DNA of 64,000 bases from a virus (IMGVR_UViG_3300031998_000006:1-64000); one strand, 5' to 3'; positions 35,533 to 55,186 are shown, counted from the first letter of the stretch. Notes: generated by a model from the letters alone, not told the origin. Program-made: numbers and translations.

Positions 35533-35544
35533 GAGTACAACGAT

Positions 35545-37284
35545 ATGTCTAACAACTTGAATTGGACCATCGCATACAAGACGGTCTTTGGCGAAAAGAA
35601 GGTGGAATCTTTCACGGACAAGAAGGAAGCTGACGCTCGTTATGAAGCCCTCCTTGCACGAACCTATGGTAGCCTTGGCGATATTGCCGGTGTGACGAAG
35701 CCGGTTCAGTCCGGGGCGAAGGTCACGGAATCCAAGGAACAGAAGACTCCGAAGAAGTGCGAATCTTGGGTGGTTGACTACAAGCGTCTGTTCGACTCCG
35801 AAATCGAGTCCGAAGAGTTTGACAACCTTACGGATGCGAACGAGTTCTACAACCGCCTTATGGACGATGCCGAAGGTTACGAGTTCATAGACGAACCCCG
35901 TGAAGTTGAAGGTCTTGAAGAATGCGGTGGCTCTTCTGCCGCATCTCTCGGTGCTATTCCCACGGGTGTTGTTAGACAGAACGATGAATCCAAGAAGTCC
36001 GAAGCAACGGGAGATACCGGCATTGATGCACAGATGATTGATGCCCTCCGCAAGAAAGCCAATGAGGACCGTGAATGGTTCGGCAAGTTCAACGATATGT
36101 TCTCCGAAGAACTCAAGGAAGCTGGTTTGGGTGGTTTCGTGATGGTGTTCCGTCCGAAGGACCCAACCAAGGTTGATGACCGCTTCCAGTACAACGTGGA
36201 ATGGCAGCCGTATGACTTGAACTACGATTTTGTTAAGAATGACGAGTTTAACCAGAAGACCTATGGCTTCATTGATTGCGAATGGGATGGCAAGTCCGTT
36301 GTTACGCACGACTACCGCCCATTGGACGAACAGAGCATTGACGATTTCTATGACACCGTTGTTGCAAGCGGTTCGGGCGATGAGGGTATCTTCCTCTGGG
36401 TGCTTGAGCAGTACAAGCAGAGCATCGGCAAGACGGAAGCCAAGAAGTCCGAAGCGGACGGTGATGAAGCCAAGCTCCAAGCCGCCTATGGCGATGGCGG
36501 CATCATTACTCACGAATCCTCCGCAGACGGCTTCTATGTGGATGACCATGACCCGATGGGCTATGCAATCCTCAATAACGATGTGGCTACGATGAAGGAA
36601 CTCTTCGCAGGCACTGCACCCGTTCCCGAAAAGCCTTGGACCTATGCCGGTTGGCACGAAGACACGGACGCCCCGGAAGACAAGGACGGAAACTATCCGT
36701 ATGTCTATGACTGGGAACGAGAAAACGATACCAACTTCGTGAACGACTGGAAGCGAGTTGTTGGCGAAACGAACAACGAAGAAGCCCTCAACTTTCTTCT
36801 TGAAAAGGCACCGGACTTTGTTCCTACCGCAATCGACTTCTACAATGCATTCCATGCCGGTTATGACAAGAAGCTGCTCCGCAAGTTGCTTGACAACATC
36901 AGCACGGTGGTTGACAAGGAAGACATCAGCCGTGAATATTTGAATTATGAAGACTTTGGCGAAGATGCCTACAACAACCTCGACAAGTTCTTGGATGCAT
37001 CCGAATCTTGTAAGTCCGAAGCCTTGCCCCCGAAGCAGTGGGGCAACCGCGCTCGTAAGTTCCCTTCCCGTGCCGCACTCGTCAACAAGGCGAAGACTCT
37101 CGGTGCTACCGAAATCATTAGCCACGATGATTACAAGAAGTTGAATGACGATGTGTTCCTCGACAAGATAGGCTTTGCAATGGACATCAACGGAAACTGC
37201 AAGGCTCGTCTGTGGTGGGGCGAAAAGGATGGAAAGTATTACTACACTATTACCCGTGATGTCCTCGACAAATCTGGCTGGTAA
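35545..37284 (+). CDS. Acidic modular protein with ESKKSE-type linkers (putative internal head polyprotein)
   Basis: ESKEQK, ESKKSE, EAKKSE and ESCKSE separate unrelated modules. Confidence 0.75.
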   Translation: MSNNLNWTIAYKTVFGEKKVESFTDKKEADARYEALLARTYGSLGDIAGVTKPVQSGAKVTESKEQKTPKKCESWVVDYKRLFDSEIESEEFDNLTDANEFYNRLMDDAEGYEFIDEPREVEGLEECGGSSAASLGAIPTGVVRQNDESKKSEATGDTGIDAQMIDALRKKANEDREWFGKFNDMFSEELKEAGLGGFVMVFRPKDPTKVDDRFQYNVEWQPYDLNYDFVKNDEFNQKTYGFIDCEWDGKSVVTHDYRPLDEQSIDDFYDTVVASGSGDEGIFLWVLEQYKQSIGKTEAKKSEADGDEAKLQAAYGDGGIITHESSADGFYVDDHDPMGYAILNNDVATMKELFAGTAPVPEKPWTYAGWHEDTDAPEDKDGNYPYVYDWERENDTNFVNDWKRVVGETNNEEALNFLLEKAPDFVPTAIDFYNAFHAGYDKKLLRKLLDNISTVVDKEDISREYLNYEDFGEDAYNNLDKFLDASESCKSEALPPKQWGNRARKFPSRAALVNKAKTLGATEIISHDDYKKLNDDVFLDKIGFAMDINGNCKARLWWGEKDGKYYYTITRDVLDKSGW

Positions 37285-37304
37285 CAAGGAGAAAAAAAAA
37301 GATT

Positions 37305-37589
37305 ATGTCCAAATTAACTATCAAGACTAACGAAGAATCTGGCGATGCATCGTTGCGTGACCTCATCCATGATGACAAGGAAAATACCCTTCTTGCAAAG
37401 TTCGGTACTTTGGGTGATGCCAACCGTTGTTTTGCGGCACTTTCTGGTGTCCTTTTCGACAATGGCGAACTTGCACAGCACGAAACCGTGGCATTGTTCC
37501 CGATTATGTCTAATGTGGCAGTCTTTATGTATGATAAAGCCGGTGCTGATGCCGTGGAAGAATACATCCTTGAACATTTCGGAGTTTAG
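37305..37589 (+). CDS. Putative internal head protein (leader MSKLTIKTNE)
   Basis: AAGGAG RBS and the shared 10-aa leader. Confidence 0.75.
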   Translation: MSKLTIKTNEESGDASLRDLIHDDKENTLLAKFGTLGDANRCFAALSGVLFDNGELAQHETVALFPIMSNVAVFMYDKAGADAVEEYILEHFGV

Positions 37590-37591
37590 TT

Positions 37592-37990
37592 ATGTCAAAG
37601 TTGGTAATTAAGGCTTACGAACATAGGGTAAAGGAGTCCACGGACTCTACCACTTACTCCATCATTTCTGCTTTCGGAAAGTACGAGGATGCCGATGGGC
37701 ATTCCGGTACTCTCTATGATGCAAGCACCCTCGTAACTACCCGTGAGTTTGCTTCCGCAGACGAACTTATCCAGTTCGTTTATCGCAAGTTGAAGATGAA
37801 CCCGAAGAACTGCACGGTCAATTCCCTTGATAGGGATGAGGGCGAATCGTACATTAGCCTTGAGGTTGTGTACAAGACTCGCTCTACTACCCAGTCCTAT
37901 CTGTTGCGTATCGTAGGTTACAAGCGTATCGCCTGCCCGAAGGACGAACTCGTGGATGCATTCAAACCTATTTTGTACAAGGAAGGTTGA
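37592..37990 (+). CDS. Putative internal head protein (leader MSKLVIKAYE)
   Basis: GGAG RBS and the shared 10-aa leader. Confidence 0.75.
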   Translation: MSKLVIKAYEHRVKESTDSTTYSIISAFGKYEDADGHSGTLYDASTLVTTREFASADELIQFVYRKLKMNPKNCTVNSLDRDEGESYISLEVVYKTRSTTQSYLLRIVGYKRIACPKDELVDAFKPILYKEG

Positions 37991-38013
37991 TTTTAATTCA
38001 AGGAGACTGTATT

Positions 38014-38382
38014 ATGGCAAAATTTAAATGTTCTATGCAGAAGAAGAAGGAATCTCTTGCCAAGGAATCCGAAGCAAAGAAGAACGAAGGGTTTATGAAT
38101 GACCTTCCGTATGATGCATCGGTTGCAATAGAATCGCTTTGTGCCGAGATTATGGCACACCCGGACACATTTACTATTGAAGATTCTGCCGTAGCTGAAA
38201 TGTGTGGCAAATGGTATATCCGTAGTTATGCGGATGGCCCCACGATGGCACATAATGAAGATGAATGGGTGGAAGAAGTTACCGCTGGGTTGTCTGGTAG
38301 CCCAGTGGATGGTTCTCCGTTTGGAGCTGCCGAAGCGGAAGAATATGCTCACAAGGTATTCCAAGAAGAACTTGCAGAATAA
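38014..38382 (+). CDS. Putative internal head protein (leader MAKFKCSMQKKKESL)
   Basis: AAGGAG RBS. The leader recurs internally in two other ORFs. Confidence 0.75.
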   Translation: MAKFKCSMQKKKESLAKESEAKKNEGFMNDLPYDASVAIESLCAEIMAHPDTFTIEDSAVAEMCGKWYIRSYADGPTMAHNEDEWVEEVTAGLSGSPVDGSPFGAAEAEEYAHKVFQEELAE

Positions 38383-38438
38383 TATTTTTGAATAGATAGC
38401 ACGGATTAGCTATAAATTTTGTATATTTATAGCATCAA

Positions 38439-38540
38439 GTTTAATGAATTAGTGGCTTTCTTCATTAAACGATAAGAACCATTTTACGATGGCTCGTTTG
38501 GAATTGAAAGCCACAGTAAGTTCCGAACGAGTCATTTTTG
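38439..38540 (+). promoter_or_regulatory. Double-hairpin kissing-loop leader upstream of the large tnpB
   Basis: Stems 38439-48/38461-70 and 38489-505/38519-35. The loop 9-mers GTGGCTTTC and GAAAGCCAC are exact complements. Confidence 0.7.
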
Positions 38541-38545
38541 TATCT

Positions 38546-40240
38546 ATGAGTAAGCATTGTTGGACATTGAAGGATAAGTATGAGTCACAGTTCTCTGTGT
38601 CTTTTTATCCATTTATGTTGTCCAACACGAAGAAAGCTGAAATCCTACATAGGGCAGAAGAGATACGAGCGGTTAGAAATGAAATATCGGAAATCGTACA
38701 TAATGATATGTTACGGTTTCAAGATATGTCAAAGTTTAGTTTTCAAAAAGTATTTAATTCTTTATATAATCATAGGCTTTCTAGTCATTATTTACATAAG
38801 GCGATTGATGATGTTTGGATAGCATATAATCGTAGATTTAAGGCGATTGCTCAAAAGATTGAATTTTATAAAGTTGATAAGCTAATCCCCACATTTTATA
38901 AAATCAATACTCATGGACATCATATAGGCGATTTACGTAGTATTACTTGTCATACTCGTAAAACTGATTTGACATTAGCTCTGACTTGGTTGGCTAAACA
39001 CGGTAATGATACTACTATTGAATGGTTAAAATCTACAATAGCTTCGGGGTCTTCCAAGAATGCCTTTTATTATAAGTTATTAGGATATATTCAACGTTTT
39101 GGGTTTGGGCGACTTATGCGGTTGGCAACATCTCGACGGGATGCCTTATTTAAGTCTTATTTTTTACGCGGTAGGATTATTTTTAATTCTTTGACATTTC
39201 ATGGAAGGAGTAGGCATACTCGACCTATTGTAAGTTTGGCTCGAAAAGAAAAGGGTAAGTTTAATTGTTATATAGAACTTTCATGGCTGTGGAATAATCA
39301 AGGTTATCATGGTGTGGCTACAAATGCTTTATGCATTCCGGTTAAGTATAGTAAAGCATATCATCGGTCTTTAACTAGATATACTCATAGTTTTGATACC
39401 TTTTATACTATGGTTATTACAGGTAAGGATATTCATATAGTTTTATATAGACGAGGGTATCGGTACAAGAATAATGTAGAGATTAGTGATAACAATACTA
39501 TAGGTATAGATGTTAATTCTAAAACTAATATGTTTACTTTAAGTACGGGTGGGTTTATAGCTAATGATTCATCCCTAATAAATGAGTTTATAGTAGAATC
39601 TCGTAAGGTTGATAGAAAGCAACATCACTATAATTCTAGGTATGCTATCCAGCCTGATGTTTCAGCATTTAAGATGTCTAAAACGGATAAAATTCATATC
39701 AGTTCTATTTCTAGGAAATTGAAGGAATCTAATAGAAGAACTATTGTAAACTTATGTAAGCAACTTGCCATTAAGGGTATATGGCATATTGCTATGGAAA
39801 ATTTAATTGGATTTAAAGGTACTAAATTACATCCAAATGATGAATTAGGGTTTAATCTAGGGAGGTTGCATAAATATATAAATTTATCCTCATTAAAGGA
39901 CGAGTTTATACATATAGCTCCCAAGTACGGGTTGTCCGTATCTCTTGTGCAACCCGAATACACATCAAAGATGTGTGGACATTGCGGATGCATAGATGAC
40001 CGCAATCGTCAAACCCAAGAAGTTTTTAAATGTGTTGAATGTGGGCATACAGAAAATGCTGACGTTCATAGTGCAAAGAATATCAAATTCCGTCTTACCT
40101 CGACCGTGTTAAGGGGGTACTTGTTCGAAAGAGCGAGGGATAACGGATATAGGAACTTTCAGCCAAAGAGCTTGTCTAGGTGGCAAGTAAGGGAGTTCCT
40201 AGAAAAATGTCGTAGCAGTGGGCTATTTAGTAGTTCATAG
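38546..40240 (+). CDS. tnpB: Large (564 aa) TnpB/Cas12f-like RuvC nuclease
   Basis: IGIDVN, IAMENL, PEYTSK, CGHC..CVEC and NADVHSAKNI. AT-rich insert in the head region. Confidence 0.85.
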   Translation: MSKHCWTLKDKYESQFSVSFYPFMLSNTKKAEILHRAEEIRAVRNEISEIVHNDMLRFQDMSKFSFQKVFNSLYNHRLSSHYLHKAIDDVWIAYNRRFKAIAQKIEFYKVDKLIPTFYKINTHGHHIGDLRSITCHTRKTDLTLALTWLAKHGNDTTIEWLKSTIASGSSKNAFYYKLLGYIQRFGFGRLMRLATSRRDALFKSYFLRGRIIFNSLTFHGRSRHTRPIVSLARKEKGKFNCYIELSWLWNNQGYHGVATNALCIPVKYSKAYHRSLTRYTHSFDTFYTMVITGKDIHIVLYRRGYRYKNNVEISDNNTIGIDVNSKTNMFTLSTGGFIANDSSLINEFIVESRKVDRKQHHYNSRYAIQPDVSAFKMSKTDKIHISSISRKLKESNRRTIVNLCKQLAIKGIWHIAMENLIGFKGTKLHPNDELGFNLGRLHKYINLSSLKDEFIHIAPKYGLSVSLVQPEYTSKMCGHCGCIDDRNRQTQEVFKCVECGHTENADVHSAKNIKFRLTSTVLRGYLFERARDNGYRNFQPKSLSRWQVREFLEKCRSSGLFSSS

Positions 40241-40384
40241 GAAAATCACAAGATTCTTGTAGATTTTTAGGTTACGATAGAAATGCTGCCCCAATTATTT
40301 GAAATAAACACCTATATGGCAAATACTATATTTGCATTTTATAGGTGTTTTTGTTATTATTAGGTATATCTGGAGATTTTAATT

Positions 40385-41452
40385 ATGAAAATAATTGAAG
40401 ACTATATCCCATTTAAGTGCGAAATTATAGATGACATTTCTAGGGTGGACGAGTCCGCACAGTCCGAGGTTGCCAAGTCGGGTGGCACGATTCTCGCCAT
40501 TGTGAAGGGTCCTCATTTCTGTCCCGGAAAGGTCAGCCGTAACCACAGACTTTATACGGAAGAACTCTGGGAAGCAGCAAGCAAGGATGAGGAAGTTCAG
40601 CGCAAGCTCGCCAATGGGCAGATGTTTGGTCGTGTGGGTCACGAAGCCGAAATTACCGATGAAGACATCGGGGCAGGCAACTACTCCCACATTACTCGTA
40701 ACATCGACTGGAAGACCGGCATTGCGGAATCCGTCATCTTCAACACCCCGATGGGCAATAATCTCTACACCCTTCTCCGTGCCGGTACTACCACGATGTA
40801 TGTCAGCTCCCGTGCTGACGGCGACTACTGTGGCAAGGACGAGGATGACAATGACATTCTTGACCCGAAGACCTACAAGCTGGAACGATTTGACTTTGTT
40901 CAGGACCCCGGCTTCCTTGATGCCAAGCCGAAGCTGATTTCCGAATCCAAGAAGAAAGAGGACGAAAACCTCAAGGAAACCATTGGAGAGAAGGTTGCAG
41001 AATCGCTTCTCAACCTCGCTATGGAAATCGGAGCGCCCCTTGAACTCGATGGCTCTACCTACTCTGTTGACAAGGTTTGCGAAAGCAAGGTGGATATGTC
41101 CGATTGCGAAACGATGACCAGCGATACCTACACTCTCGGCGACTTTACCGAAGTGACGGAAGATATGCGTAAGGGAATCGTTGAACATTTCAACAACCAG
41201 CAGAAGGAACTTGAGGAATCTCGCAAGGAACTTGAAGAAGCCCACAAGCTCATCAAGACCCTCCGCTTCGCCAACCGCAAGGGCTTGGACGAAGACTATG
41301 TGGAAAGACGAGTGAGTGAGGGTGCATCGCTTGAAAGCATCGAACGCGAACATCCCACTCCGCAGCCGTTCAAGGTTGTGGAAGCCAAGTTCAAGAAGGT
41401 CAACGAAGAATACGATACACTTGATTACCTGCTCGGCTTGGGCAGAAAGTGA
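40385..41452 (+). CDS. Prohead maturation protease, T4 gp21-like, with C-terminal extension
   Basis: SRNHRLY, FGRVGH, SHI, VSSRADG and FDFVQDPG match the gp21 motif series. Confidence 0.88.
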   Translation: MKIIEDYIPFKCEIIDDISRVDESAQSEVAKSGGTILAIVKGPHFCPGKVSRNHRLYTEELWEAASKDEEVQRKLANGQMFGRVGHEAEITDEDIGAGNYSHITRNIDWKTGIAESVIFNTPMGNNLYTLLRAGTTTMYVSSRADGDYCGKDEDDNDILDPKTYKLERFDFVQDPGFLDAKPKLISESKKKEDENLKETIGEKVAESLLNLAMEIGAPLELDGSTYSVDKVCESKVDMSDCETMTSDTYTLGDFTEVTEDMRKGIVEHFNNQQKELEESRKELEEAHKLIKTLRFANRKGLDEDYVERRVSEGASLESIEREHPTPQPFKVVEAKFKKVNEEYDTLDYLLGLGRK

Positions 41453-41463
41453 GGAGCATAACT

Positions 41464-41838
41464 ATGGGTAAGATGAAGATTAAGGTTCACGAAGCCGTTT
41501 CGGATAGAGCGGATATTGTGATTAGCGATTTCTTGGATGACCATAAGGCTGATGCTCATGATTTAATGACTTCGGCATTTTCTGAAATTTTGTATGGAAT
41601 GGGTCCTAACCAGACGATAGACAAAGATTTGGCAGAAGTGTTAGCGGAATACGCTTATCGTATGATTTTGTACAACGCCTACTACTATGACCAGTACGTG
41701 CCTACTTTGGAAGAATTTGCCGAAATGTGCAATAAGAAGCGTATGGAAACCCCGTTAATGGATTCTACCACCCATGCATTTACGGATGCTATTATCAAGC
41801 AAATCTATATGCAATATGCTCCTTTGTTGAAGGACTAA
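41464..41838 (+). CDS. Putative internal head protein (leader MGKMKIKVHE)
   Basis: GAGGAG RBS and the shared leader. Confidence 0.75.
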   Translation: MGKMKIKVHEAVSDRADIVISDFLDDHKADAHDLMTSAFSEILYGMGPNQTIDKDLAEVLAEYAYRMILYNAYYYDQYVPTLEEFAEMCNKKRMETPLMDSTTHAFTDAIIKQIYMQYAPLLKD

Positions 41839-41854
41839 TTAAGGGCGGTTACTT

Positions 41855-42445
41855 ATGTCCAAAATGACTATCCGTTTGCATGAGAGCAAGGTACAGGAAG
41901 CAACGGGCCTGTTCTTGCCAGAATCCTTGAAGGAATCTCTTGAGTTCCACCTTCCGAACTGCACCGATTGCAAATCCGTAATCGTCTGCAAGTGTGACGA
42001 AGAACTCGACGAGGACATTCAATGGGCAATCCGAGATACATCACTTCCGGTGGTGGATGCTTCCATTGCTGACAACTACCTCGTCCTCGCATTGGAAGAG
42101 AATGCATCCGATGAGGAAATCCAGTCTATCTTCAACGAAGAGTACAAGAAAGCCATCCTTACGAAAGCCCCGAAGCTGGTGGCTTCTATGGATGTGGAAT
42201 CCTTGCAGAAAGCCCTCGTGGACTTGCAATCGGGTAGCATCGGCAAGCCGTGGGAACTCGACTTTACGAACTCCGTGTCTTGGGGCTTGAACATCTTCGA
42301 TGACATCCTCTATAGCGAACAGAGCGGTGCAAGCGTCTATGCCACCGCGTTCAACTATGTGGTTTGCGGACCGGACGGAAAGGAATTGACCACAACCCGT
42401 TCTATGGTGGAAGTGAAGAACTTCCTTGACACAAATTTCAAATAG
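41855..42445 (+). CDS. Putative internal head protein (leader MSKMTIRLHE)
   Basis: Shared leader, acidic. Confidence 0.75.
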   Translation: MSKMTIRLHESKVQEATGLFLPESLKESLEFHLPNCTDCKSVIVCKCDEELDEDIQWAIRDTSLPVVDASIADNYLVLALEENASDEEIQSIFNEEYKKAILTKAPKLVASMDVESLQKALVDLQSGSIGKPWELDFTNSVSWGLNIFDDILYSEQSGASVYATAFNYVVCGPDGKELTTTRSMVEVKNFLDTNFK

Positions 42446-42457
42446 GAGAAGTTTACT

Positions 42458-42856
42458 ATGGCAAAAATGACAATCAAGGTTAAGGAAGCCAAGGAATACG
42501 GAAGCATCGAAGAGGTGTTCCAGGACTTGGGCTACTTCCCGGCAGAAGACAGCGATGACAAGAAGCTCGTCTGCTATATGGACTTTGAAACGGGCATAGA
42601 TGTTCCGAAGTATGTGTCCGTTATTACTCACTATGATTTCCAAGCCGATGACCTTCTTGTTGAAGTGGCAGCCGGTTCTTATGACCACACCACTCGTGAC
42701 GGAAGCATCGGGGATATGTTCTACACCTTCATCGGTGCGGAACTTGAACATCCCACTTTCGAGCAGGTCAAGAAAGCCTGCAAGAATGCGGAAAAGGCGG
42801 CAAAATACTATATTAAGGCTTTGCAGATTAACCTAAACACAGAAGGAGCGGTGTAA
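42458..42856 (+). CDS. Putative internal head protein (leader MAKMTIKVKE)
   Basis: AGGAG RBS and the shared leader. Confidence 0.75.
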   Translation: MAKMTIKVKEAKEYGSIEEVFQDLGYFPAEDSDDKKLVCYMDFETGIDVPKYVSVITHYDFQADDLLVEVAAGSYDHTTRDGSIGDMFYTFIGAELEHPTFEQVKKACKNAEKAAKYYIKALQINLNTEGAV

Positions 42857-42858
42857 TT

Positions 42859-43239
42859 ATGTCCAAGATGAAGATTACAGTTCACGAAGCCAAGAACGAT
42901 AAGATAGTACCCTACACCTTGATGCAGTGCTACTATCCCGACGAAAAGCGATGGGACCCGATTCTCGTTGAAATCAACTCCAATGACCAGGGCTGGTTCT
43001 ACGATGGACTCGCTCCGGTGGACAACTTCGGCAACTTCGCCTATTACGAATTTGGTTGGGATTTCATCCATCAGCGTTGCAGGAAGGGTACGGATAAGTG
43101 TGACCCCGAAATGGTTGCCGCTATGGAGAAGGAATACTTGTCCGGGGATGACCTTGCGGATGGCTACACCTACAAGAAGGTGGACGGAAGACTCGGTGCC
43201 TATGTTCCGAAGGGCTTGCGTTACATTGGAAACAATTAA
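42859..43239 (+). CDS. Putative internal head protein (leader MSKMKITVHE)
   Basis: AAGGAG RBS and the shared leader. Confidence 0.75.
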   Translation: MSKMKITVHEAKNDKIVPYTLMQCYYPDEKRWDPILVEINSNDQGWFYDGLAPVDNFGNFAYYEFGWDFIHQRCRKGTDKCDPEMVAAMEKEYLSGDDLADGYTYKKVDGRLGAYVPKGLRYIGNN

Positions 43240-43445
43240 GGAAACCGTCAATAAATCCCACCCATCTTTAGTGGGTGGGTTGAATTGCCCGAAAGAATAA
43301 GGTATATTATGTCTAACAATACGGGTGGAACGCCCGGAATTTACGCCGACGGAGATATTATGATACACGTTAGTGTAGCAGCCCCGGAAACCTTGCATAC
43401 TAGGATGTGTGAAACCTACACGTCTTTAGTGTGTGGGTAGTTCAT
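43240..43445 (+). mobile_element. 206-bp non-autonomous IS200/IS605 derivative with an omegaRNA-like body
   Basis: Follows TTAA. Left hairpin AAAT-CCCACCCATCTTTAGTGGGTGGG; right end GAAA-CCTACACGTCTTTAGTGTGTGGGTAGTTCAT. Removal restores TAAGGAGAAAACCACTATG. Confidence 0.85.
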
Positions 43446-43458
43446 GGAGAAAACCACT

Positions 43459-44442: not shown

Positions 44443-44485
44443 CTTACTACGTATAATCTTCTCCAGTCGCAACAAACTAAACAAT

Positions 44486-44514
44486 AGAGTTCCGAGTTTT
44501 TCGGAACTCTTTTT
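44486..44514 (+). terminator. Intrinsic terminator
   Basis: AGAGTTCCGA/TCGGAACTCT stem followed by a T run. Confidence 0.8.
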
Positions 44515-44683
44515 GTATTGCCATTTTCTTTCGTACAAAATAAATATAATAGTTTATCTAAATATATAACAATTTATCTATAACTCCATACTTGATAAAG
44601 TGTTATATTTGTCAAAAAGTGTCAATTTATTTGTGGGTTTCTTAAAATCCGCAAGTTTTTTTATTATATTATTTTGTTGGACA

Positions 44684-44915
44684 CTAGGATTGAATCTACC
44701 GAAGTCATTAAAAATGCTCGGCTTAAAAACCGAGAATGCCCGAAACCATCGTAGATAGCAATATCTATGTAAGTTAGGGGTATCAAATAGGTTTTTAATC
44801 TAGGAGAGGATTCAAATTCCAGTTTAAAAGGGACGGCATTTTGCCGATTTCAAAAACCTACCCTTTTAGGAGAGCAATCCAAAAGATTGCTTAATGCAAA
44901 CAAAGTAACCCTAAC
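44684..44915 (+). ncRNA. Candidate structured RNA leader before the scaffold/capsid operon
   Basis: At least eight complementary segment pairs, including a GCAA-capped hairpin and two crossing helices. Confidence 0.5.
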
Positions 44916-44930
44916 AGGAGACCATCCATT

Positions 44931-45500: not shown

Positions 45501-45518
45501 ACCCGGAGGAAATCCAAA

Positions 45519-47174: not shown

Positions 47175-47210
47175 TCCGTAAGAGAGTTCAACACCTCGGT
47201 TGAATAATCG

Positions 47211-47244
47211 GTGTCACTAGGGTAAAACCTAGTGGCACTTTTTT
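47211..47244 (+). terminator. Intrinsic terminator
   Basis: GTGTCACTAGG/CCTAGTGGCAC stem followed by T6. Confidence 0.88.
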
Positions 47245-47314
47245 ATTTGCGGTTTGTTCGCAGTCAACAATATTTTGTTATTTTTATCAATGTATCTTTG
47301 CAAAGGATTCCATT

Positions 47315-47452
47315 ATGGCAGAAAGCACCGAAGAAGCCGATGGCAAGTTGAATAACTATGTGGAATATATGCTTATATTCCTTGAGAACGAAGTAGTCCG
47401 CAATGGCTACTACGATGAACCAGAATATCCCCTTGAACTTTTGTATCTATAA
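47315..47452 (+). CDS. 45-aa acidic peptide (below the ORF-track cutoff)
   Basis: AAGGA RBS; MAESTEEADGK...LLYL*. Confidence 0.5.
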   Translation: MAESTEEADGKLNNYVEYMLIFLENEVVRNGYYDEPEYPLELLYL

Positions 47453-47466
47453 GGAGAAATCATCCT

Positions 47467-49476
47467 ATGACGAACGAACGCAGAAGTAATGCCGATTACT
47501 TGCAGGAAATATGGGATTCCCTTGAGGGTGTCTGGGACAAGTCCAAGTATAATATGGAAAAGGGCTACGATGACGAGTACGGCTGTGAATGTATCACAAT
47601 CTCGCTTCGTGACAATGAGGATGTCCGTGCAAAGATTTATGTGGAAGACCACGAAGGTCAGCATCCTACCGGCTTTGAGGTGGTGTACCGCTACCCCGGC
47701 GACAAGGGTGTGGGCATAGGTGGCTACTACGAGTTCCAGAGTACCGATATGGACGGACTGGGTGAGGAAGTGTTTGACTACTTTGACGAAATTAAGAACA
47801 AGGTTGGAGAATCTATGAAGAACGAAGGAAAGAACGAAGTGTCCAACTTCTCTAGGGATAGCTTGGGAGTATCGTTTGACGGTAAGTTCGGCAATATGCG
47901 AAAGGGCGAAAGCTGGGTAGTTTACCCGGAAACCTTGGACAAGGGCTACATCTGCATCCAGGGCGATACTCGCTTCGGCTATATCAATGTGAACAAGGGC
48001 TTCCTCGTGTTGTCCGCACCGCATAGCACCCCGATTTATGCCGCACTAATGGTTGACATCAACAAGGGCAAGGCACAGTGTATTCCGCTTGAGAAGGAAA
48101 TCGTTGACCAGATTTTGAATGCCGTGAATGACAGAACCATCACGGACCATAGCCTTGACAATGTTATCCGCAATGCCGATGTCACGGATGACGAACTCAA
48201 GGGCGAAGCAAAGCAGATGGAAGCCACGAAGAAGTATTACGGTTATGGCAAGGATGATGTTATTGACAAGGAAGACACTGACTTTATGTGGCAAGTTGCT
48301 TATGATTGGTTTGAGGACCGATTGCCCGAACGATTAAAGGGTAAGGCTGATAGTGCCGTGTATAAAGTCATTGATAAGGATAGCCGTGCATACGAAGAAA
48401 TCTTGACTATGGACGATTACCACGATTACTTGCAAAAGTACGGTCCTGGCATCATCAAGGACATCAAGGCTAACAACGAAGCCAAGCAGTGCGAAGATGT
48501 GCAGTATTACTATGACCGCTTGAACCCTACTGAAAAGGAAAAGTTCAACGGACTCTCCGAACAGATTGAAACTTTGGTTGGTATGTATGACGAGAACGGG
48601 GAGTTGTCCAAACCGCAGCAAGACCAGCTTAAAGAATTGCGTGACACCATCTATGTGTTCGGATATGTTGCAAGGGGCTATGTCAGCTTTGCCGATGAAG
48701 TCCTTGCCAACTATGGGGTTGAACCTTTGCTTGACTCCAAGGAGCCAGTCTTCGATGAAGCCAGACAACCCGCAGAATATAGTGTGCATTCCTACAATGA
48801 TACGGACATCCAGCATTATGAAGACGGCACACCCGAAGAATGGAGATGTCAGCGTTGTGGTGGTTTGAACGGTGGCGAAGATGGTGAACCTTTTGGAAAA
48901 TACATTACGGATTCTAATGGAAAGGTTGTGATACGCTTACTGTGTTCTGGTTGTGCAGATGACGCTTGCGATATTCTTAATGCTACTCACGGAAATGTCC
49001 GTAAGGCTATAGGACTTGGTGAATCCAAGAAGTCCGAAGATGCTTCCGACCCTATGGTTATCTACAAGGAAGGTGGCATTTATCGCACTACACCGAAGTC
49101 CAACTACGATGCCCGTATTCAAAATGCTTTCCGCATCCAGAAGTGGGATGGCTTTGACACTCCGCAGGAAATCATCAACTATTGCACGAAGTATTCTAGT
49201 GGCTTTGACCCGGAGAATGTGATTATCGTCGAATCCAAGAAGAGCGAGTCCTTGACCCTCAAGCAGAAGGAACTCAAGGATATGGCACGCTACGGACAAG
49301 CCGAGGACATCACTACCATTTCCGACGCGGAAGCCAAGGAACTCAAGAAGAAGGGCATTGAAACGGTGGGCATCAGCCGTGGTGTCTATGGTATGAACGG
49401 TGCGTTGCTTCGTGACAACGAGGGTAATAAGTATGTGATTACCGCAAGAAGCAGTAATTTGTTCTACTTTGTTTGA
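47467..49476 (+). CDS. Acidic multi-module protein with ESKKSE-type linkers
   Basis: ESMKNE, EAKQME, EAKQCE and two ESKKSE. Includes a CQRC..CSGC zinc-ribbon module. Confidence 0.8.
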   Translation: MTNERRSNADYLQEIWDSLEGVWDKSKYNMEKGYDDEYGCECITISLRDNEDVRAKIYVEDHEGQHPTGFEVVYRYPGDKGVGIGGYYEFQSTDMDGLGEEVFDYFDEIKNKVGESMKNEGKNEVSNFSRDSLGVSFDGKFGNMRKGESWVVYPETLDKGYICIQGDTRFGYINVNKGFLVLSAPHSTPIYAALMVDINKGKAQCIPLEKEIVDQILNAVNDRTITDHSLDNVIRNADVTDDELKGEAKQMEATKKYYGYGKDDVIDKEDTDFMWQVAYDWFEDRLPERLKGKADSAVYKVIDKDSRAYEEILTMDDYHDYLQKYGPGIIKDIKANNEAKQCEDVQYYYDRLNPTEKEKFNGLSEQIETLVGMYDENGELSKPQQDQLKELRDTIYVFGYVARGYVSFADEVLANYGVEPLLDSKEPVFDEARQPAEYSVHSYNDTDIQHYEDGTPEEWRCQRCGGLNGGEDGEPFGKYITDSNGKVVIRLLCSGCADDACDILNATHGNVRKAIGLGESKKSEDASDPMVIYKEGGIYRTTPKSNYDARIQNAFRIQKWDGFDTPQEIINYCTKYSSGFDPENVIIVESKKSESLTLKQKELKDMARYGQAEDITTISDAEAKELKKKGIETVGISRGVYGMNGALLRDNEGNKYVITARSSNLFYFV

Positions 49477-49495
49477 TAACTGGGGTCTTTTACTT

Positions 49496-51628
49496 ATGAA
49501 CTATGTTAGTATCACAACATCTTACCAAGACGGACGGAACATTGTATATGTGTCTTCTATTGGTCTAGGTAAGACTATGGCAGAAGCGGAAGATAATTGC
49601 GAAAAAACTTTGTTTAAGTATCATCCGCAAGTGAAGCCTTACTATAGGGGCATCCAGAGTTGCCAGAGTCATCACAGTAATTATGATTTCAAATTGGAAG
49701 ATGCATTTACGGAATTACGTGGTTTGGACAAGAACCCGGAATTGATGCAGATACTCCTGGATTACTTGCCCGAAGCGATTACTAGGGAATTGCCCGGAAT
49801 CAAGGTTGTTTCCGATGTGACCACCAAGACTACTCCTAATGGTTTCGTTGTTTCCGTAGACTTGCAAGATAGGGATGGTAACGAGTTCACATTGGATGTG
49901 GGCTATGGTAGCAAGGTGGGTGTCCACGTTTCCATCTTCTCGGACAAGGATAATCGCTATGTGAGTGATACGGCAAAGGGTTATCCACCGCAATGCCCTA
50001 ACATCAAGGAATTGTTAAATCAATACTACAAGCACATCAATCGTGCTAGACAAAACAAGGAAGAAAGTATGAAACAATCTAAATGCTCTATGCAGAAGAA
50101 GAAGGAATCGCTCTACAAGAAAAATGAGGGTGTGTCCGCTAGTTCGTTGTTCGCAATCGACCCTAAATCGGGTCATTCCAAGATTTACGATGAACTTTGT
50201 GACATCGTAGATAACGTGTCCTATTCCGGTGTGCTGAATGCCGAAGATGCCACGGACGAATATCCCGATGCTGTTAGTGTGGATTTTGAAGTTAGTTCCG
50301 ATGATTCCGCACCGTATTCTGTGATGGTGTCTATCTATGGCAAGGAAGAAAACGATGAAGAAAGCCAGTTGTCTTATTCTGTTTGGGATGAGTACAATAA
50401 CAATTTGAAGTCCTACAAATCGGCTGTGGGTGGCGCTCCGTTAGGTTATCAAAAGGGTTATAAGATTTCCGAATTGCCCCAGATGTGGGATGACCTTCAA
50501 AAAGATATTCAGTCTTTGGTGTCCGATGCAGAACAAGATGAATCCAAGAAGTCCGAAGCTAATCTTGACGACTTGAAGGGAATGGTTGTGAGCGAAGGAA
50601 CTATGCGTTCCGAAGACCTCATTCCGAAGTTCCTGAATGTCTTGAAGACCTATGGCAAGGATAAGTACGATGCCTACGTCAAGGAAAACCCGGAAGTTCT
50701 CGACCTCGAAGGTATGGACGATGAAACGATGGGCTATGTAGTTGACGAACTCTTCAACAAGCTGGACGAAATCTCTCCGGAAGGATTCTATTTTGCCGCC
50801 CACCCGGATGATGGTGCTTGCTATGGATTCTGGGAAGTTGACCCGAATGAATCCAAGAAGTCCGAAGACTTTGATATGAACAAGGCTTTCTTCCAGGCTA
50901 AAAAGGCTATCACTGATTGGACCAAGAGGCAGGGACATAAGACCCTGGAATGGCTCTATACGGATGGTCGTAAGAGTCCAACTTCTTATCCGTCGGGTAT
51001 TTGGGATTTTGAATGGGACACGGGTAATGGGATGGCTACTGCGGAACTTAAAGTTTCTCCGTATGAGACCCGTACTAATTCGTGGAACAACAGTATGGAC
51101 TTTAGTTTGAGAGTGGGAACTGAAGATAAGCCTACGTTCTATACTTCCGTGGAAGATGTTCTGTATGCGTTAGATACGTTAATTAGCAAGAACGAAATCA
51201 AGATGGAATCCAAGAAGCCGGAAGCCTGCAAGGGTGGCAAGGACGATGATAAGAAGGGTGGCAAGGATGGCAAGGCTGCCGAATCCAAGAAGTCCGAAGG
51301 TGTCAGTGGTACAATCACGATGAACATTGACTATAACACCTTTATGCGTCTTCTTGATGCCGCCGCGTTCCTTGATGCAGATGAAGATTACAAGGATGCT
51401 CTCTGGGATTATTATTCCGAACTGGGCGAAATTGGTGGCGAAGCCTTTGTGTTCTTTGATAACCTCTTCCAGTACACGGCTTGGTACGATGTTGACGAAA
51501 TGTATGACGAAATAGGAGAACGCTTCCAAGACGAATCCAAGAGCAAGGAAGAATGCATTCAGGATGCTATCGACGATGGCGATATGACCATCTATCAGTA
51601 CAAGGACCACTACCTCGTTCTTAACTAA
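49496..51628 (+). CDS. Acidic multi-module protein with ESKKSE-type linkers
   Basis: KCSMQKKKESL, three ESKKSE and one ESKKPE. Confidence 0.8.
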   Translation: MNYVSITTSYQDGRNIVYVSSIGLGKTMAEAEDNCEKTLFKYHPQVKPYYRGIQSCQSHHSNYDFKLEDAFTELRGLDKNPELMQILLDYLPEAITRELPGIKVVSDVTTKTTPNGFVVSVDLQDRDGNEFTLDVGYGSKVGVHVSIFSDKDNRYVSDTAKGYPPQCPNIKELLNQYYKHINRARQNKEESMKQSKCSMQKKKESLYKKNEGVSASSLFAIDPKSGHSKIYDELCDIVDNVSYSGVLNAEDATDEYPDAVSVDFEVSSDDSAPYSVMVSIYGKEENDEESQLSYSVWDEYNNNLKSYKSAVGGAPLGYQKGYKISELPQMWDDLQKDIQSLVSDAEQDESKKSEANLDDLKGMVVSEGTMRSEDLIPKFLNVLKTYGKDKYDAYVKENPEVLDLEGMDDETMGYVVDELFNKLDEISPEGFYFAAHPDDGACYGFWEVDPNESKKSEDFDMNKAFFQAKKAITDWTKRQGHKTLEWLYTDGRKSPTSYPSGIWDFEWDTGNGMATAELKVSPYETRTNSWNNSMDFSLRVGTEDKPTFYTSVEDVLYALDTLISKNEIKMESKKPEACKGGKDDDKKGGKDGKAAESKKSEGVSGTITMNIDYNTFMRLLDAAAFLDADEDYKDALWDYYSELGEIGGEAFVFFDNLFQYTAWYDVDEMYDEIGERFQDESKSKEECIQDAIDDGDMTIYQYKDHYLVLN

Positions 51629-51647
51629 TCGCTGTACCTCGCGTTGT

Positions 51648-51674
51648 ACCGCCCCTATTTTGGGGCGGTTTTTT
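51648..51674 (+). terminator. Intrinsic terminator
   Basis: ACCGCCCC/GGGGCGGT stem followed by a T run. Confidence 0.88.
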
Positions 51675-51749
51675 CGTATAGGGAGATTTCTCATAGGATA
51701 GGTTTTTAGTTATATTTCCTAGTGGAAAACATTTGCAGAGGATTTAGCT

Positions 51750-52562
51750 ATGTCCAAATTGACCATCAAGGTACACGAAAACAAGTCCGAGGATTTCAAC
51801 TACGGGCGTGTTAGCACTCCGGTTGCCCAAGCCTACAAGGTTTTGGATGACCAGTATTGCGATGAAAAGACCGGTAAGATGACCGGTCCGGCATTTGACT
51901 CTATTATGCTTATGGCAGAGAATGATGAACCGATTTACAACTATGCCCAAAGCAAGAGAGTTAAGTCGCATTCTGTTGCTTGGATGGCTCTGTTGAAGGA
52001 CATTGCGATGACACTTCAATGGCACGATGATGTGCCACACGCTGAAAACTTGACCTCCGAGCAGGTCAAGAATTGGTTCAAGTTCAAGGGTCAGGATTAT
52101 AAGACGGAACTCGCTCCGTTGGTAAAGCTCATCGACGAATGGCGTGCCGATATGTTCAAGGACGAATCCAAGAAGTCCGAATCTCTCGCAGCGGATATGT
52201 CCAAGGCGATTCAGCAAAGCAAGCCTAAAGTTCTCTTGAGTGATGATGCTGTTGACTACTTTAATGATTACGATTCTATGCTTGACCAATTTGAAGGGGC
52301 ATACCAGACGGTCATTCACATCAATGGTAAGCACGGAGTTGAAGAAATGTGGTTTATTTATGAACCGGATGACAACATCGTTGCTATTGGTGACTTTGAT
52401 GTAGACCGTGCCGATGCTGAAAGGGCAAAGGAACTTATGGAAAAGTTCGTCCGTGGCGAACTTACCGAAAAGCCCGGAAACTCCGATGACCTTGAAAGTG
52501 TTGATTACATCGCCATCGTGGATGGCAATACCTACACCTCTACCGCATTCGTGGAAGGATAA
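51750..52562 (+). CDS. Putative internal head protein (leader MSKLTIKVHE plus internal ESKKSE)
   Basis: Carries both signals in one ORF. Confidence 0.8.
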   Translation: MSKLTIKVHENKSEDFNYGRVSTPVAQAYKVLDDQYCDEKTGKMTGPAFDSIMLMAENDEPIYNYAQSKRVKSHSVAWMALLKDIAMTLQWHDDVPHAENLTSEQVKNWFKFKGQDYKTELAPLVKLIDEWRADMFKDESKKSESLAADMSKAIQQSKPKVLLSDDAVDYFNDYDSMLDQFEGAYQTVIHINGKHGVEEMWFIYEPDDNIVAIGDFDVDRADAERAKELMEKFVRGELTEKPGNSDDLESVDYIAIVDGNTYTSTAFVEG

Positions 52563-52570
52563 TTACTACA

Positions 52571-53287
52571 ATGCTTGAACCGGATAACCAGAAAGTCTAT
52601 TTTACATCCGAAGACCTCTCGGAACTTTTCCCGGAAGCGGAAGACCCGATGAGTGCCGCTCTTGACGTGCTTGAGGGCGAGAAGTCCTTCATCGTGGTTG
52701 ACGGCACGGAACTCCCTCTCGGTTACGATTCCGAGAAGGATGCAATCATCATCGAGGATTCCGATGCATCGTCAGAAACCGCACGAAAGGCTCGTCAGCT
52801 TATGCAGTTGTTCGTGTCTAACGAACTTTTCTCTGCCCGTGACATCGAGGGCGAAAACGGATATATGCCCGATGAGGACTACCCGTATTCTGTGAATATT
52901 ACGGATGGTCAGTCCGCTAGGGTTGTGTCATATTATCCGTCCGAAGAGATGATTTATCCTACAGAAGTGAGCCTTTGGTCTGGAAGCGGTTACACCACTA
53001 CGGACATCTATGTTGAAGCGGACGATGACAATGCCGAGGGCGCTCTTGAGGAAGCCGTGGCATCCGCAGACAAGCACGGATGGAAGGGTGTGTTGTTAGA
53101 CACAACGGAAGTCGAAAATGATATGGCAGCGGATGGACACTACAATTTGGAAACGGGCGAAGGGGATGCCGTGTTCGACGAGACATACCTTTATGTGGAT
53201 GCTACGATGGCTGGTGCTTCGCAGCCCTACTATGTGTATGCCGAAAACTTCGGTGTCCGTCCTAACCGCAAGTTGAGAATTAAATAA
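52571..53287 (+). CDS. Acidic hypothetical protein
   Basis: 238 aa, same codon style as the cluster. Confidence 0.75.
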   Translation: MLEPDNQKVYFTSEDLSELFPEAEDPMSAALDVLEGEKSFIVVDGTELPLGYDSEKDAIIIEDSDASSETARKARQLMQLFVSNELFSARDIEGENGYMPDEDYPYSVNITDGQSARVVSYYPSEEMIYPTEVSLWSGSGYTTTDIYVEADDDNAEGALEEAVASADKHGWKGVLLDTTEVENDMAADGHYNLETGEGDAVFDETYLYVDATMAGASQPYYVYAENFGVRPNRKLRIK

Positions 53288-53302
53288 AGGAGCGAATGCT
53301 TT

Positions 53303-55186
53303 ATGGCTTTGAGAATTAACAATCACACGAAGGATTTTGCCGGTAAATTGCACGAATCCAAGAAGTCCGAGGGCAAGTGGGAAATCACTCCGCAAGAAAT
53401 GAATAACAAGTTCTTGCCGTTTCTTGGTAATCAAGTGGTGGCTACTCGTATTACCTCTCCGTCGCAGATTCCGGGCTACAATGCTCCGTTCAACATCGAC
53501 AAGCATTCTACCTATTACCTCATTGAACCGAATCCCGATTTCAATAGGGGTGCGAATAAGAATGTTCGTTCCGTCATTGTTGGATGGCAGGGCGATTCTA
53601 ACAAGGAATGGGTAATCCGTGTATATCCTACGGCTGACAAGTCGAAGGGTCAGTGGGATTGGAGTAATATGCCCATTGATGACGATGCAGCCGATTGGAG
53701 AGATGCGGCACGATATGTCACTAATTTGGTATTGAACGATTCAAAGAAGGAATCTACTATGACTGCACACAAGTTTGGCAACAAGTCCGAATCTTCCCGC
53801 TATGGTAGCGGTATGGCTACTCGTAAGGATTTCTCCAAGACTCGTAATCTTGGCGACATCCTTGAAGTCCTTGAATCCCACCGCAAATTGCTCAAGGCGG
53901 CTGCCGAGGATATGAACCAGAGCAAGGCTGACTTGAAGGATGCCATCAAGCGTCTTAACGAGTTTGAAAAGAATGCGGACTTCCTCAAGCAACAGTCCGT
54001 GAAGGGCATCAAGAAAGCGATAGCGGTCAAGAACTCCCCGGAAGTCCAGGCTTCGGGCGAAGTCATCGACGCTCTCAAGAGTGTCATTTCCATCATTGCG
54101 GCTGATTATGCTAACATCCCCGATGTCAAGCAGCTTATGACCGTCATAGACAGCCGATATGCCACTCGTGGTAGCCAGATTCTCACAACCCTTGAAGGTC
54201 AGGTTTCCCGTGCTATTGAAGTGGATATGAAGACCCTCCAGAACAGCATCGACAATGGCGATGTTGCCGAAGACGACATTATGAAGTTCGTGACCACCAC
54301 TACCATCACTCATGGCGTACAGAGCAAGAGCGTGGTGGAAAATGTCACTCCGGTCCTGGAACGAATGAATGCGATGATTGAAGCATCCTCCAAGATGCAG
54401 GAAGCCGTTATCGACCCGAAGGAGTTTAAGGAACTTCGTGACCTCGTGGAACAGATTGTGAAGGAAGCATCCGCTCCGAAGGACACCTTCCGTACATCCA
54501 TTGTTGCACTCGACAAGGACACTATCGCATCCGTCAAGACTGAATCCAAGATTGTTGAAGGTCTGCTCGACAAGCTCAAGTCCGTAGTGTCCGCAATCAA
54601 GGACAAGATTTCCGCTTTGTGGGATTCCTTCACTTCTCTCTTCTTTAGCGTGGAAGACGAAGCCCTTGAATCCGCTGACGTGTTCAACGAAGTGGAAGTT
54701 AGCCTTGCCATTGTTGGTATCGAGGTTCCGTCCGCTCCGAAGACTGAAAGCCTTGGTAAGCAGTTTGAAGTTCTTACGAAGTCTGTGCTTCACTGTTGCG
54801 ATAAGCTCGTCAAGGACGCTTCTCTCGCAGGAGAGTTCGACGACGAAGTTATATATGCGGAAGATGCGGTTAAGAATGCCGTTGAATCTTTCAAGAACCT
54901 CGGCAATGCTTGCAAGTCCTTGAAGTCCGTCCTCTCCTATCACAAGAACGAAGACAATATGAATGTCATCGGAATCTTGGCTGATGCCATCACGCAGATT
55001 GTTGCTGACGATGCTGGCGAAGAAGGTGGCGAGGGTAGCGAAGGTGGCGATGGCGAAGTTGGTGGCGAATCCGTCCTTGACCAGATTGAGAACGAATACT
55101 CCCCGGCTGGTGGCGAAGAGAACGAAGAACCCGAAGCTAATGCCGCACCCAACCCGGCTGAAATGGGAACTCCCGAAGAGTTCTAG
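53303..55186 (+). CDS. Modular coiled-coil protein with an N-terminal ESKKSE
   Basis: KLHESKKSE, DSKKES, KTESK and KTESL, with an acidic Gly-rich tail. Confidence 0.78.
   Translation: MALRINNHTKDFAGKLHESKKSEGKWEITPQEMNNKFLPFLGNQVVATRITSPSQIPGYNAPFNIDKHSTYYLIEPNPDFNRGANKNVRSVIVGWQGDSNKEWVIRVYPTADKSKGQWDWSNMPIDDDAADWRDAARYVTNLVLNDSKKESTMTAHKFGNKSESSRYGSGMATRKDFSKTRNLGDILEVLESHRKLLKAAAEDMNQSKADLKDAIKRLNEFEKNADFLKQQSVKGIKKAIAVKNSPEVQASGEVIDALKSVISIIAADYANIPDVKQLMTVIDSRYATRGSQILTTLEGQVSRAIEVDMKTLQNSIDNGDVAEDDIMKFVTTTTITHGVQSKSVVENVTPVLERMNAMIEASSKMQEAVIDPKEFKELRDLVEQIVKEASAPKDTFRTSIVALDKDTIASVKTESKIVEGLLDKLKSVVSAIKDKISALWDSFTSLFFSVEDEALESADVFNEVEVSLAIVGIEVPSAPKTESLGKQFEVLTKSVLHCCDKLVKDASLAGEFDDEVIYAEDAVKNAVESFKNLGNACKSLKSVLSYHKNEDNMNVIGILADAITQIVADDAGEEGGEGSEGGDGEVGGESVLDQIENEYSPAGGEENEEPEANAAPNPAEMGTPEEF

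Follow-up and report, generated by a model that had tools for sequence, protein, structure and literature searches.

The stretch analyzed here (IMGVR_UViG_3300031998_000006:1-64000; hereafter the window, 64,000 nucleotides) is the first 64 kb of a 215,310-bp phage genome with 46% G+C. It belongs to a jumbo tailed phage, with genes for a gp23-like capsid protein and a head maturation protease within the window. Around these genes lie several open reading frames (ORFs) in which a hexapeptide, ESKKSE, recurs as a linker between protein modules, and it is the role of this hexapeptide that concerns us. A first-pass annotation of the region had reported nine exact copies in six ORFs, four close variants, and a related word, ESKKKE, in the protease. 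A six-frame search bore this out: the nine copies are all on the plus strand and every variant is present. The proteins concerned are as follows.

35545-37284, + strand: multi-module protein of 579 amino acids (aa), with linkers ESKKSE at 35986, EAKKSE at 36436, and ESCKSE at 37003.
40385-41452, + strand: prohead protease, 355 aa (phrog_207, head maturation protease, E value 1e-20), with ESKKKE at 40943.
43444-44442, + strand: multi-module protein, 332 aa, with ESKKGE at 43729, CSMAKKKESLAKKSE at 43759-43803, and ESKKSE at 44110.
47467-49476, + strand: multi-module protein, 669 aa, with ESMKNE at 47809, then EAKQME, EAKQCE, and ESKKSE at 49021 and 49231.
49469-51628, + strand: multi-module protein, 719 aa, with CSMQKKKESLYKKNE at 50084-50128, ESKKSE at 50540, 50849, and 51281, and ESKKPE at 51206.
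51750-52562, + strand: 270-aa protein, with the leader MSKLTIKVHE, a module, ESKKSE at 52164, and another module.
53303-55186, + strand: 627-aa protein, with a 17-aa leader-like N terminus, ESKKSE at 53354, a variable module, NKSE at 53780-53791, and a C-terminal part of ~465 aa.

Given the residue frequencies, 0.006 copies of ESKKSE would be expected by chance in the 66,344-aa ORF set of the genome, versus 10 observed. The tenth copy is outside the window, at genome position 196563, where it stands between ESKKNE at 196044 and ESKKNE at 197133 in one 717-aa ORF. In the six-frame translation 0.008 copies would be expected, and 100 shuffles produced 0. ESKKSE is the commonest hexamer of the whole proteome, the remaining repeated hexamers coming from a five-copy transposase-like gene family, and other variants (EAKQME, EAKQCE, ESMKNE, and EAKKNE) also occupy module boundaries. 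No copy was found in any further protein of the 215,310-bp genome. This agrees with the earlier remark that the motif is missing from the baseplate, sheath, and tube ORFs, with few tail genes being nameable here (the only ones found were a match to a baseplate hub, 61799-62545, and homologues of tail genes, 57327-61262). Nor is the motif equally frequent in non-head proteins, a possibility that the first-pass annotation had raised: its short form, KK.E[ASGD], has 22 occurrences in the head cluster (6,104 aa) and 4 in a second cluster at 193-197 kb (1,272 aa), versus 3 in the other 58,968 aa of the genome.

We collected sites of the form E[SA]K[KQ]xE from the window genome and from the loci of eight related contigs, which gave 70 sites with distinct context, all of them (70/70) on the plus strand. 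The fifth position is S in 29 sites, N in 17, and K in 9, and the residue following the second Glu is small in 56/70 (A 25, S 14, G 10, D 7). The consensus is E-S-K-K/Q-x-E followed by a small residue, and its minimal form is K-K-x-E with A, S, G, or D next. With P1 assigned to the second Glu, P3 is Lys in 63/70 sites and Gln in 7/70, and never the A, S, or G of the phiKZ/SPN3US type; ahead of the first Glu, the P3 residue is variable over the 70 sites.

The linkers delimit 25 segments of at least 60 aa, about the 20 or more products that had been proposed. They had also been described as mutually unrelated acidic modules, which holds for most: 21/25 have an isoelectric point (pI) below 5.6, and only two pairs are paralogous at E<=0.01. 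Seven multi-module proteins are found in the head-gene cluster and one at 195 kb, with 2-6 modules of 64-184 aa and up to five linkers per protein; the modules of the 35545-37284 protein, for example, have 147, 144, 183, and 87 aa. Known families are of little help. Pfam has none for the window multi-module proteins (0 in 7/7), neither PHROG nor Pfam has one for the 35545-37284 protein, and across all multi-module and leader proteins (see below) the two databases return only phrog_29605, of unknown function, on the module at 50558-50848. No MuF, ART, MPTase, or other known conflict domain and no embedded peptidase was detected with Pfam at E<=0.01 or 0.1, and a cluster look-up of eight proteins yielded only the name "hypothetical protein," one of them from a Clostridia metagenome-assembled genome.

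The comparison with relatives is more informative. Two full-length relatives, G001 (215,686 bp) and G002 (213,231 bp), have proteases ~70% identical to that of the window. We compared ten proteins of the window genome with stretches of G001 and G002 by BLASTP; 24 matches were listed, and their boundaries were not all scored systematically. The 47467-49476 ORF has five high-scoring segment pairs to four different G001/G002 proteins, and 4/5 begin or end at a linker. Its residues 247-343, from EAKQME to EAKQCE, correspond to residues 898-994 of a 1265-aa G001 protein, where they are flanked by ESKQTE, and its residues 589-669 correspond to the C terminus of a 335-aa G002 protein. Residues 364-466 of the 49469-51628 ORF, from ESKKSE to ESKKSE, match residues 2-103 of the same 1265-aa G001 protein. 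The C-terminal module of the 43444-44442 protein is internal in a 444-aa G002 protein (ORF 18356-19690 of L004+L007), and the 35545-37284 protein has partial, rearranged homology to G001 and G002 proteins. The conserved ~465-aa part of the 53303-55186 protein directly follows ESKKSE in both relatives, behind unrelated N-terminal pieces; the window protein has NKSE where the relatives' ESKKSE precedes this part, and the ESM Atlas gave no usable match for it. For the 51750-52562 protein no homologue was found in the compared G001/G002 stretches. Since the matches start and stop at linkers in differing protein contexts, modules have moved from one protein to another, the linkers serving as joints, and the motif coincides with module boundaries.

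The module at 50558-50848 provides a structural counterpart. It spans 97 aa between two linkers, and its AlphaFold2 (AF2) model, built on an alignment of 57 stand-alone homologues, is a single compact domain with a predicted local distance difference test score (pLDDT) of 96.8 and 97/97 residues ordered, so that the fold boundary is the linker-to-linker segment. The modules in general are most likely independently folding and mostly acidic. A search of 1.84 billion representatives gave 2310 representative homologues at E<=0.001. Among the best 150 of these, 78 have no more than 160 aa and 72 are longer, so that at least this module does exist as a stand-alone gene. With Foldseek, its model had 0 matches in the PDB at E<=0.001 and matched only uncharacterized viral proteins in BFVD. 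The ESM Atlas matches were likewise uncharacterized viral proteins only, including one cluster of 7,759 members, and tblastn found seven phage records with uninformative annotations and no plasmid.

What precedes this module in its homologues bears directly on the role of the motif. Seventy-eight of the best 150 homologues have alignments reaching module residues 1-6. Of these, 28 begin at the Met, a Glu stands exactly at -1 in 27 and within -3 to +2 in 14, and 9 lack one. In 11 proteins only MK[KT]SE or MKSE stands ahead of the module, and in one the leader MSKMKINIHE; other words found there are ...ESKKSE, ...ESMKSE, and ...KKKESLFKKTE. Since a spacer would be purposeless at an N terminus and a processing signal would not, these tags argue for a signal over a spacer. 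The MKKSE-type tags would also suggest that the cut falls right after the second Glu. In another lineage, four homologues of the module (P0110, P0111, P0114, and P0121) are bounded by ...R-G-R-M-L-K-E followed by S or A, which suggests that other phages join or tag this module via their own Glu-ending site.

The protease at 40385-41452 has 72 homologues, with 92% to 36% identity. Its AF2 model (26-sequence alignment, pLDDT 78 overall) has confident regions at residues ~22-177, the catalytic domain, and ~194-330, a C-terminal helical/beta domain; the only internal segments with pLDDT below 50 are residues 178-180 and 187-194. The word ESKKKE occupies residues 187-192 (nucleotides 40943-40960), that is, a disordered joint right after the catalytic domain. 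In Foldseek the top three matches of the model are chains of T4 gp21 (5JBL; probability 1.00, template modeling score 0.68-0.70 by target, E value 2e-5), and the next match has an E value of 0.02. The predicted structure is that of T4 gp21, a herpesvirus-assemblin-like fold, and model and fold search agree with the earlier proposal of a gp21-type protease carrying ESKKKE behind its catalytic domain. Sequence profiles are less telling: no Pfam family is found on the protease at E<=0.01, PF03420 is precomputed on 10/72 homologues, and the protease alignment, run as a profile over PDB sequences, brought up no protease, only a chance match with an E value of 0.06. Across 26 sequences, the most distant at 28% identity, residues H86, H102, S141, and E187 do not vary, and S188 hardly does; Glu-Ser is present at the joint in 68/69 homologues with the anchor FDFV..PGF, out of 72 examined. 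A complex prediction of the catalytic domain (residues 20-186) with a 43-aa linker piece (window 50495-50623) scored 0.02 where the mark was 0.32; this counts neither way.

A second signal is found at the start of small proteins in the same cluster. The pattern M-[SAG]-K-[LM]-x-I-x-x-x-E, a ten-residue leader in which position 8 is hydrophobic and position 10 is Glu, has seven six-frame matches genome-wide, all of them at ORF starts in the cluster (37305, 37592, 41464, 41855, 42458, 42859, and 51750), versus 0.14 expected and a mean of 0.15 in 100 shuffles. In relatives the hexapeptide often comes straight after the leader (MSKMKIKVR-ESKKNE, MSKKLSIRLH-ESKKQE). The window also has three copies of a third form, CSMQKKKESL.K..E, and one more copy lies at 89306. 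This last occurrence is in a leader-only mini-ORF at genome 89285-89377, in which a CSMQKKKESLAKSNE-type leader is followed by eight more codons and a stop; it is possibly a remnant of a tagged gene. The leader genes and other neighbors in the cluster are the following.

37305-37589, + strand: 94-aa leader ORF, MSKLTIKTNE.
37592-37990, + strand: 132-aa leader ORF, MSKLVIKAYE.
37987-38382, + strand: 131-aa ORF, with an extended leader/linker, CSMQKKKESLAKESE plus AKKNE, at 38029-38088, then a 97-aa acidic module.
38489-40240, + strand: TnpB/Cas12f-like ORF (phrog_506, 5e-24; PF07282, 2e-14) that interrupts the cluster and is not part of the system.
41449-43239, + strand: four leader ORFs, starting at 41464 (MGKMKIKVHE), 41855 (MSKMTIRLHE), 42458 (MAKMTIKVKE), and 42859 (MSKMKITVHE).
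44931-45500, + strand: basic, repeat-rich 189-aa protein, pI 9.2, between the protease and capsid genes.
45519-47174, + strand: major capsid protein, gp23-like, 551 aa (Pfam Gp23, 1.2e-8; phrog_138, 4.2e-8).
52571-53287, + strand: very acidic 238-aa protein (charge -37), motif-free, belonging to the cluster.

No family match was found for the four leader ORFs of 41449-43239. A module homologous to that of the 37987-38382 ORF is C-terminal in larger G001 and G002 proteins, and the 52571-53287 protein has full-length homologues in G001 (81% identical) and G002 (63%). The capsid protein has the sequence KKYE-S at residues 58-62 (KKYE being encoded at 45690-45701), and K[KR]YE[SA] is kept in 6/6 aligned capsid relatives, down to 56% identity; this makes residue 61 a candidate propeptide cut. 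The 44931-45500 protein is homologous to the ORF between the protease and capsid genes in two more distant relatives, L016 and L017, and by its position and composition it may be a scaffold-like protein.

In L016 and L017 (~130 kb, protease 47-50% identical) the protease, scaffold-like, and capsid genes are adjacent and tail genes follow. The compared stretches contain no multi-module or leader genes, and none of their hexamers is repeated beyond two copies; the scaffold-like protein of these relatives starts with MSIKILKKFTGKKSE-S. Relative to L016, the window has extra genes at 41449-44442, between the protease and scaffold-like genes, and at 47467-55186, after the capsid gene and ahead of the first homologue of a tail gene (57327). 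The compactness of L016 and L017 is shared by Rhizobium phage TM30 and Escherichia phage EP_H11. Since these compact relatives lack the extra genes, the multi-module and leader genes are a lineage-specific accessory set, and this set is variable even among the 70%-identical relatives.

The second tagged cluster, at genome 193523-197399 (locus L015, 3524-7400), is outside the window. It includes the 717-aa ORF with the tenth ESKKSE copy. In its 437-aa protein, at 193523-194836, a KTTKKE joint is followed by a ParB-like domain (PF08857, E value 0.0012, below the Pfam cut-off; phrog_1033, 1.9e-5 and 4.4e-7). The G001 homologue of this protein starts with a leader plus ENKKKE, and the G001 (L006) counterparts of the second-cluster proteins carry ten-residue leaders. 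This similarity to ParB is the only functional hint for the tagged proteins; a ParB domain is also present in the head-packaged protein DdrB of P1, according to Iyer et al. (PMC5512222).

Some other features of the genome deserve mention. TnpB/Cas12f-like ORFs, identified on the basis of phrog_506, are scattered in the structural region at 7888-9063 (+), 31047-32315 (-), 33924-35225 (+), 38489-40240 (+), and 55638-56873 (+), and two of these fall within the head cluster. The ORF at 33924-35225 has no PHROG match of its own and belongs to a five-copy family in the genome by shared 15-residue words. A reverse-transcriptase-like ORF lies at 2838-4073 (+; phrog_1423, E value 5.5e-27). We rejected as shadows of real plus-strand genes three minus-strand ORFs, 35377-37287, 44850-46826, and 57183-61307 (636, 658, and 1374 aa), the plus strand at 57327-61262 matching L016 tail-region proteins; a naive longest-ORF gene call is misled here by such antisense shadows. 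In L016 a 516-aa ORF, likely the portal judging by position only, lies upstream of the protease. Its homologue here, at genome 206121-207656, is ~165 kb away from the protease along the contig, or ~50 kb on a circular genome, and so is not next to it as in L016 and Rhizobium phage TM30.

The uniformity of the hexapeptide raises the question of whether selection acts on the peptide or on the DNA. The ten ESKKSE copies have nearly identical 18 bases. Their Lys codons (AAG in 20/20) and Glu codons (GAA in 18/20) match the codon preference of the head genes, which is 87% and 84%. Ser, by contrast, is encoded by TCC in 18/20 cases versus 38% in the head genes (P ~2e-6), which implies some excess DNA identity between copies; AGC is used for the other two. 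One might then regard the 18-nucleotide sequence as a DNA or RNA signal, for recombination, regulation, or translation, with the peptide being incidental, and the high nucleotide identity within the genome would fit. We consider this very improbable and, on the sequences compared, largely refuted already. A DNA pattern for E-[S-like]-K-K-x-E is found 16 times in G001 and 9 times in G002 on the coding strand and 0 times on the reverse strand, and a reversed control pattern has 0 occurrences in either genome. The word is always in the same frame of long ORFs (opposite strand 0/25 in relatives and 0/17 here). Codons at the G001/G002 sites alternate between TCC and AGC and between AAG and AAA, the residues being kept, and the peptide is also present in distant homologues at the protein level. 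This constant frame and synonymous variation indicate that the motif is a signal at the level of the protein.

We think it probable, though far from certain, that the motif is a processing site for the prohead protease, through which some 25 small, mostly acidic internal head proteins would be freed. The multi-module and leader proteins would be built into the prohead core late in infection. The active protease (40385-41452) would then cut after Glu at linkers and leaders, and would also cut its own ESKKKE joint and probably the capsid protein at residue 61. About 25 separate small proteins would thereby be released inside the head. We favor the view that these products are kept in the head rather than lost as scaffold debris, because they appear to be folded domains and the set resembles an arms-race repertoire in its behavior. 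A bolder version is possible but rather doubtful: K-K-x-E could be a general address for cargo cassettes, such that any domain flanked by it would be loaded, released, and enter the host with the DNA as part of a ready-made, combinatorial set of ~25 small acidic effectors, possibly DNA mimics or other anti-defense proteins, with the 18-nucleotide word doubling as a recombination joint at which genes and phages would exchange cassettes.

Several other explanations share part of this evidence. The proteins could be cut and then discarded, as an expanded scaffolding core that is chopped to leave the head before DNA entry and is not delivered. The genes lie between the protease, scaffold-like, and capsid genes, most segments are acidic, and cleaved propeptides of tailed phages generally exit the head (PMC10052503). 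We find this unlikely: the tested 97-aa module is a compact folded domain that is stand-alone in many phages without this context, one tagged protein has a ParB-like domain, and, unlike an essential scaffold, the set is highly variable in close relatives and absent from distant relatives with the same capsid and protease. Somewhat less credible again is a passive linker, a hydrophilic flexible spacer whose 18-nucleotide DNA spread by recombination during shuffling and whose proteins stay uncut. Such a spacer would account for the near-identical DNA of the copies with its TCC excess, for the same codon variant in neighboring G001 linkers, and for the clear shuffling of modules. It would not explain why MK[KT]SE or MKSE precedes the module at N termini, where no spacer is needed, why the motif is also found at the protease's own domain joint and a related K-K-x-E-S at capsid residue 61, or why both Glu and the small next residue are conserved when the flanks vary; the use of AGC for Ser, seen in two copies here and often in relatives, does not fit it either. 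We would give still less credence to a pure targeting signal, in which the basic K-K binds the prohead core or the protease for loading, with little or no cleavage at internal copies. In T4 the ten-residue capsid targeting sequence (CTS) holds both targeting and processing determinants (PMC9026906), and most multi-module proteins here have no other recognizable leader. Still, one signal per protein would be enough for targeting, yet there are up to five, exactly at module boundaries, and Glu followed by a small residue is the pattern at which proteases of this family typically cut. Targeting and cutting are in any case not exclusive roles.

A number of observations weigh against processing by the prohead protease and should be set beside those in its favor. 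To our knowledge, Lys at P3/P4 is unlike every characterized gp21-type specificity, in which P3 is L/I, A, or S/A/G. The second Glu of the protease joint is kept only among clusters with at least 65% identity, in 23/27 of them, and the closest homologue (92% identity) reads ESKKKDE, with the second Glu displaced. Since the second Glu is kept only in this closer clade, the conserved Glu of the self-site is the first one, preceded by [LMI]-[IV]-[ST]. This context fits the T4 rule L/I-x-E; the sites described for T4 gp21 are L/I-x-E, and those for SPN3US gp245 are A-x-E (PMC9026906, PMC10052503). Evidence on the scissile Glu is divided, the first being invariant in the protease family and the second being favored by the N-terminal tags. 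Most multi-module proteins lack a recognizable N-terminal leader by which they would be targeted. An acidic composition would suit discarded scaffold material equally well. The uniformity of the motif stems in part from shared DNA ancestry or gene conversion and not from selection on the peptide alone. Finally, none of the cultured relatives found is closer than ~30-38% protein identity.

The distance to described phages is also apparent from other searches. Among 50,697 phage records, Megablast found no DNA-level match of 40385-49476; the nearest named capsid proteins are at most ~35% identical over the matched pieces (Rhizobium, Escherichia, Vibrio, and other phages), and the nearest named protease relatives at most ~40%. 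A search of ~8.4 million papers and preprints for the string ESKKSE returned no occurrence, and the papers listed for polyproteins, prohead proteases, bacteriophages, and ejection proteins described no such site in their titles and the openings of their abstracts.

If processing by the prohead protease is confirmed, the internal head proteome of an uncultured clade of ~215-kb phages, which includes 27 protease clusters at >=65% identity, could be deduced with nothing more than sequence: whatever K-K-x-E delimits, or starts with the ten-residue leader, would be a candidate packaged protein. It would also mean that a gp21-type protease can have a long and strict recognition word, that a phage can use this word to concatenate and exchange folded cargo, and that the CTS idea extends to true polyproteins. 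The head-delivered context would give the family of the 97-aa module, with 2310 representatives and unknown function, its first testable hypothesis. A tag combined with a cut site could be a practical handle for loading foreign proteins into heads, as with the T4 CTS (PMC9026906). Should the broader cassette idea be true as well, phages would have here an equivalent of viral polyproteins and of the exchange of cassettes seen in integrons, with virion cargo as its object.

Among known systems, the internal proteins of T4 (IPI, IPII, IPIII, and Alt) come to mind. The likeness lies in the gp21-fold protease, in a ten-residue leader ending in Glu with a hydrophobic position 8 (seven ORFs here), and in a variable repertoire of unrelated proteins with only a tag in common (PMC3012670). 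For loading, the first ten residues of IPIII are enough, and its processing is governed by residues 8 and 10 (PMC9026906). Unlike in T4, the tag here is also internal, up to five per protein, and strings modules together; the internal site is K-K-x-E and not L/I-x-E, and the modules are mostly acidic. No homology to IPI, IPII, IPIII, or Alt was found in the PHROG and Pfam scans, the T4 sequences not being compared directly. The phages phiKZ, 201phi2-1, and SPN3US are likewise jumbo phages with a diverged gp21-like protease (gp175/gp245) that cuts after Glu. The proteases of phiKZ and SPN3US, gp175 and gp245, are known to remove their own C-terminal part, and many head proteins of these phages are cut at several sites (PMC10052503, PMC9026906); the ESKKKE joint of the present protease occupies the place at which that self-processing occurs. 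Their motifs, as described there, have three residues (A-x-E, with "extremely few determinants"), versus a near-invariant six-residue word here, and mostly N-terminal propeptides are removed, whereas here whole folded modules would be separated. There are no phiKZ-like phages among the capsid protein matches, the nearest cultured ones being Rhizobium, Escherichia, and Vibrio phages.

The polyvalent proteins of Iyer et al. (PMC5512222) resemble the present ones in having unrelated domains in one polypeptide beside virion genes; the prediction was that they are packaged and travel with the DNA, and they were likened to viral polyproteins. They are released by an embedded peptidase and contain known conflict domains, neither of which Pfam detected here. 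In our case the prohead protease would instead release the modules in trans, cutting at a defined site. In polyproteins made by RNA viruses of eukaryotes, a protease site of several residues, conserved and with a small residue after it, stands between functional units. The likeness is no more than an analogy, the protease fold and genome type being unrelated and the several polyproteins here coexisting with ordinary genes. Compared with all these systems, what would be new, as far as the sequences indicate, is a near-invariant six-residue site with basic P3/P4, used as an internal joint between modules that are released in trans.

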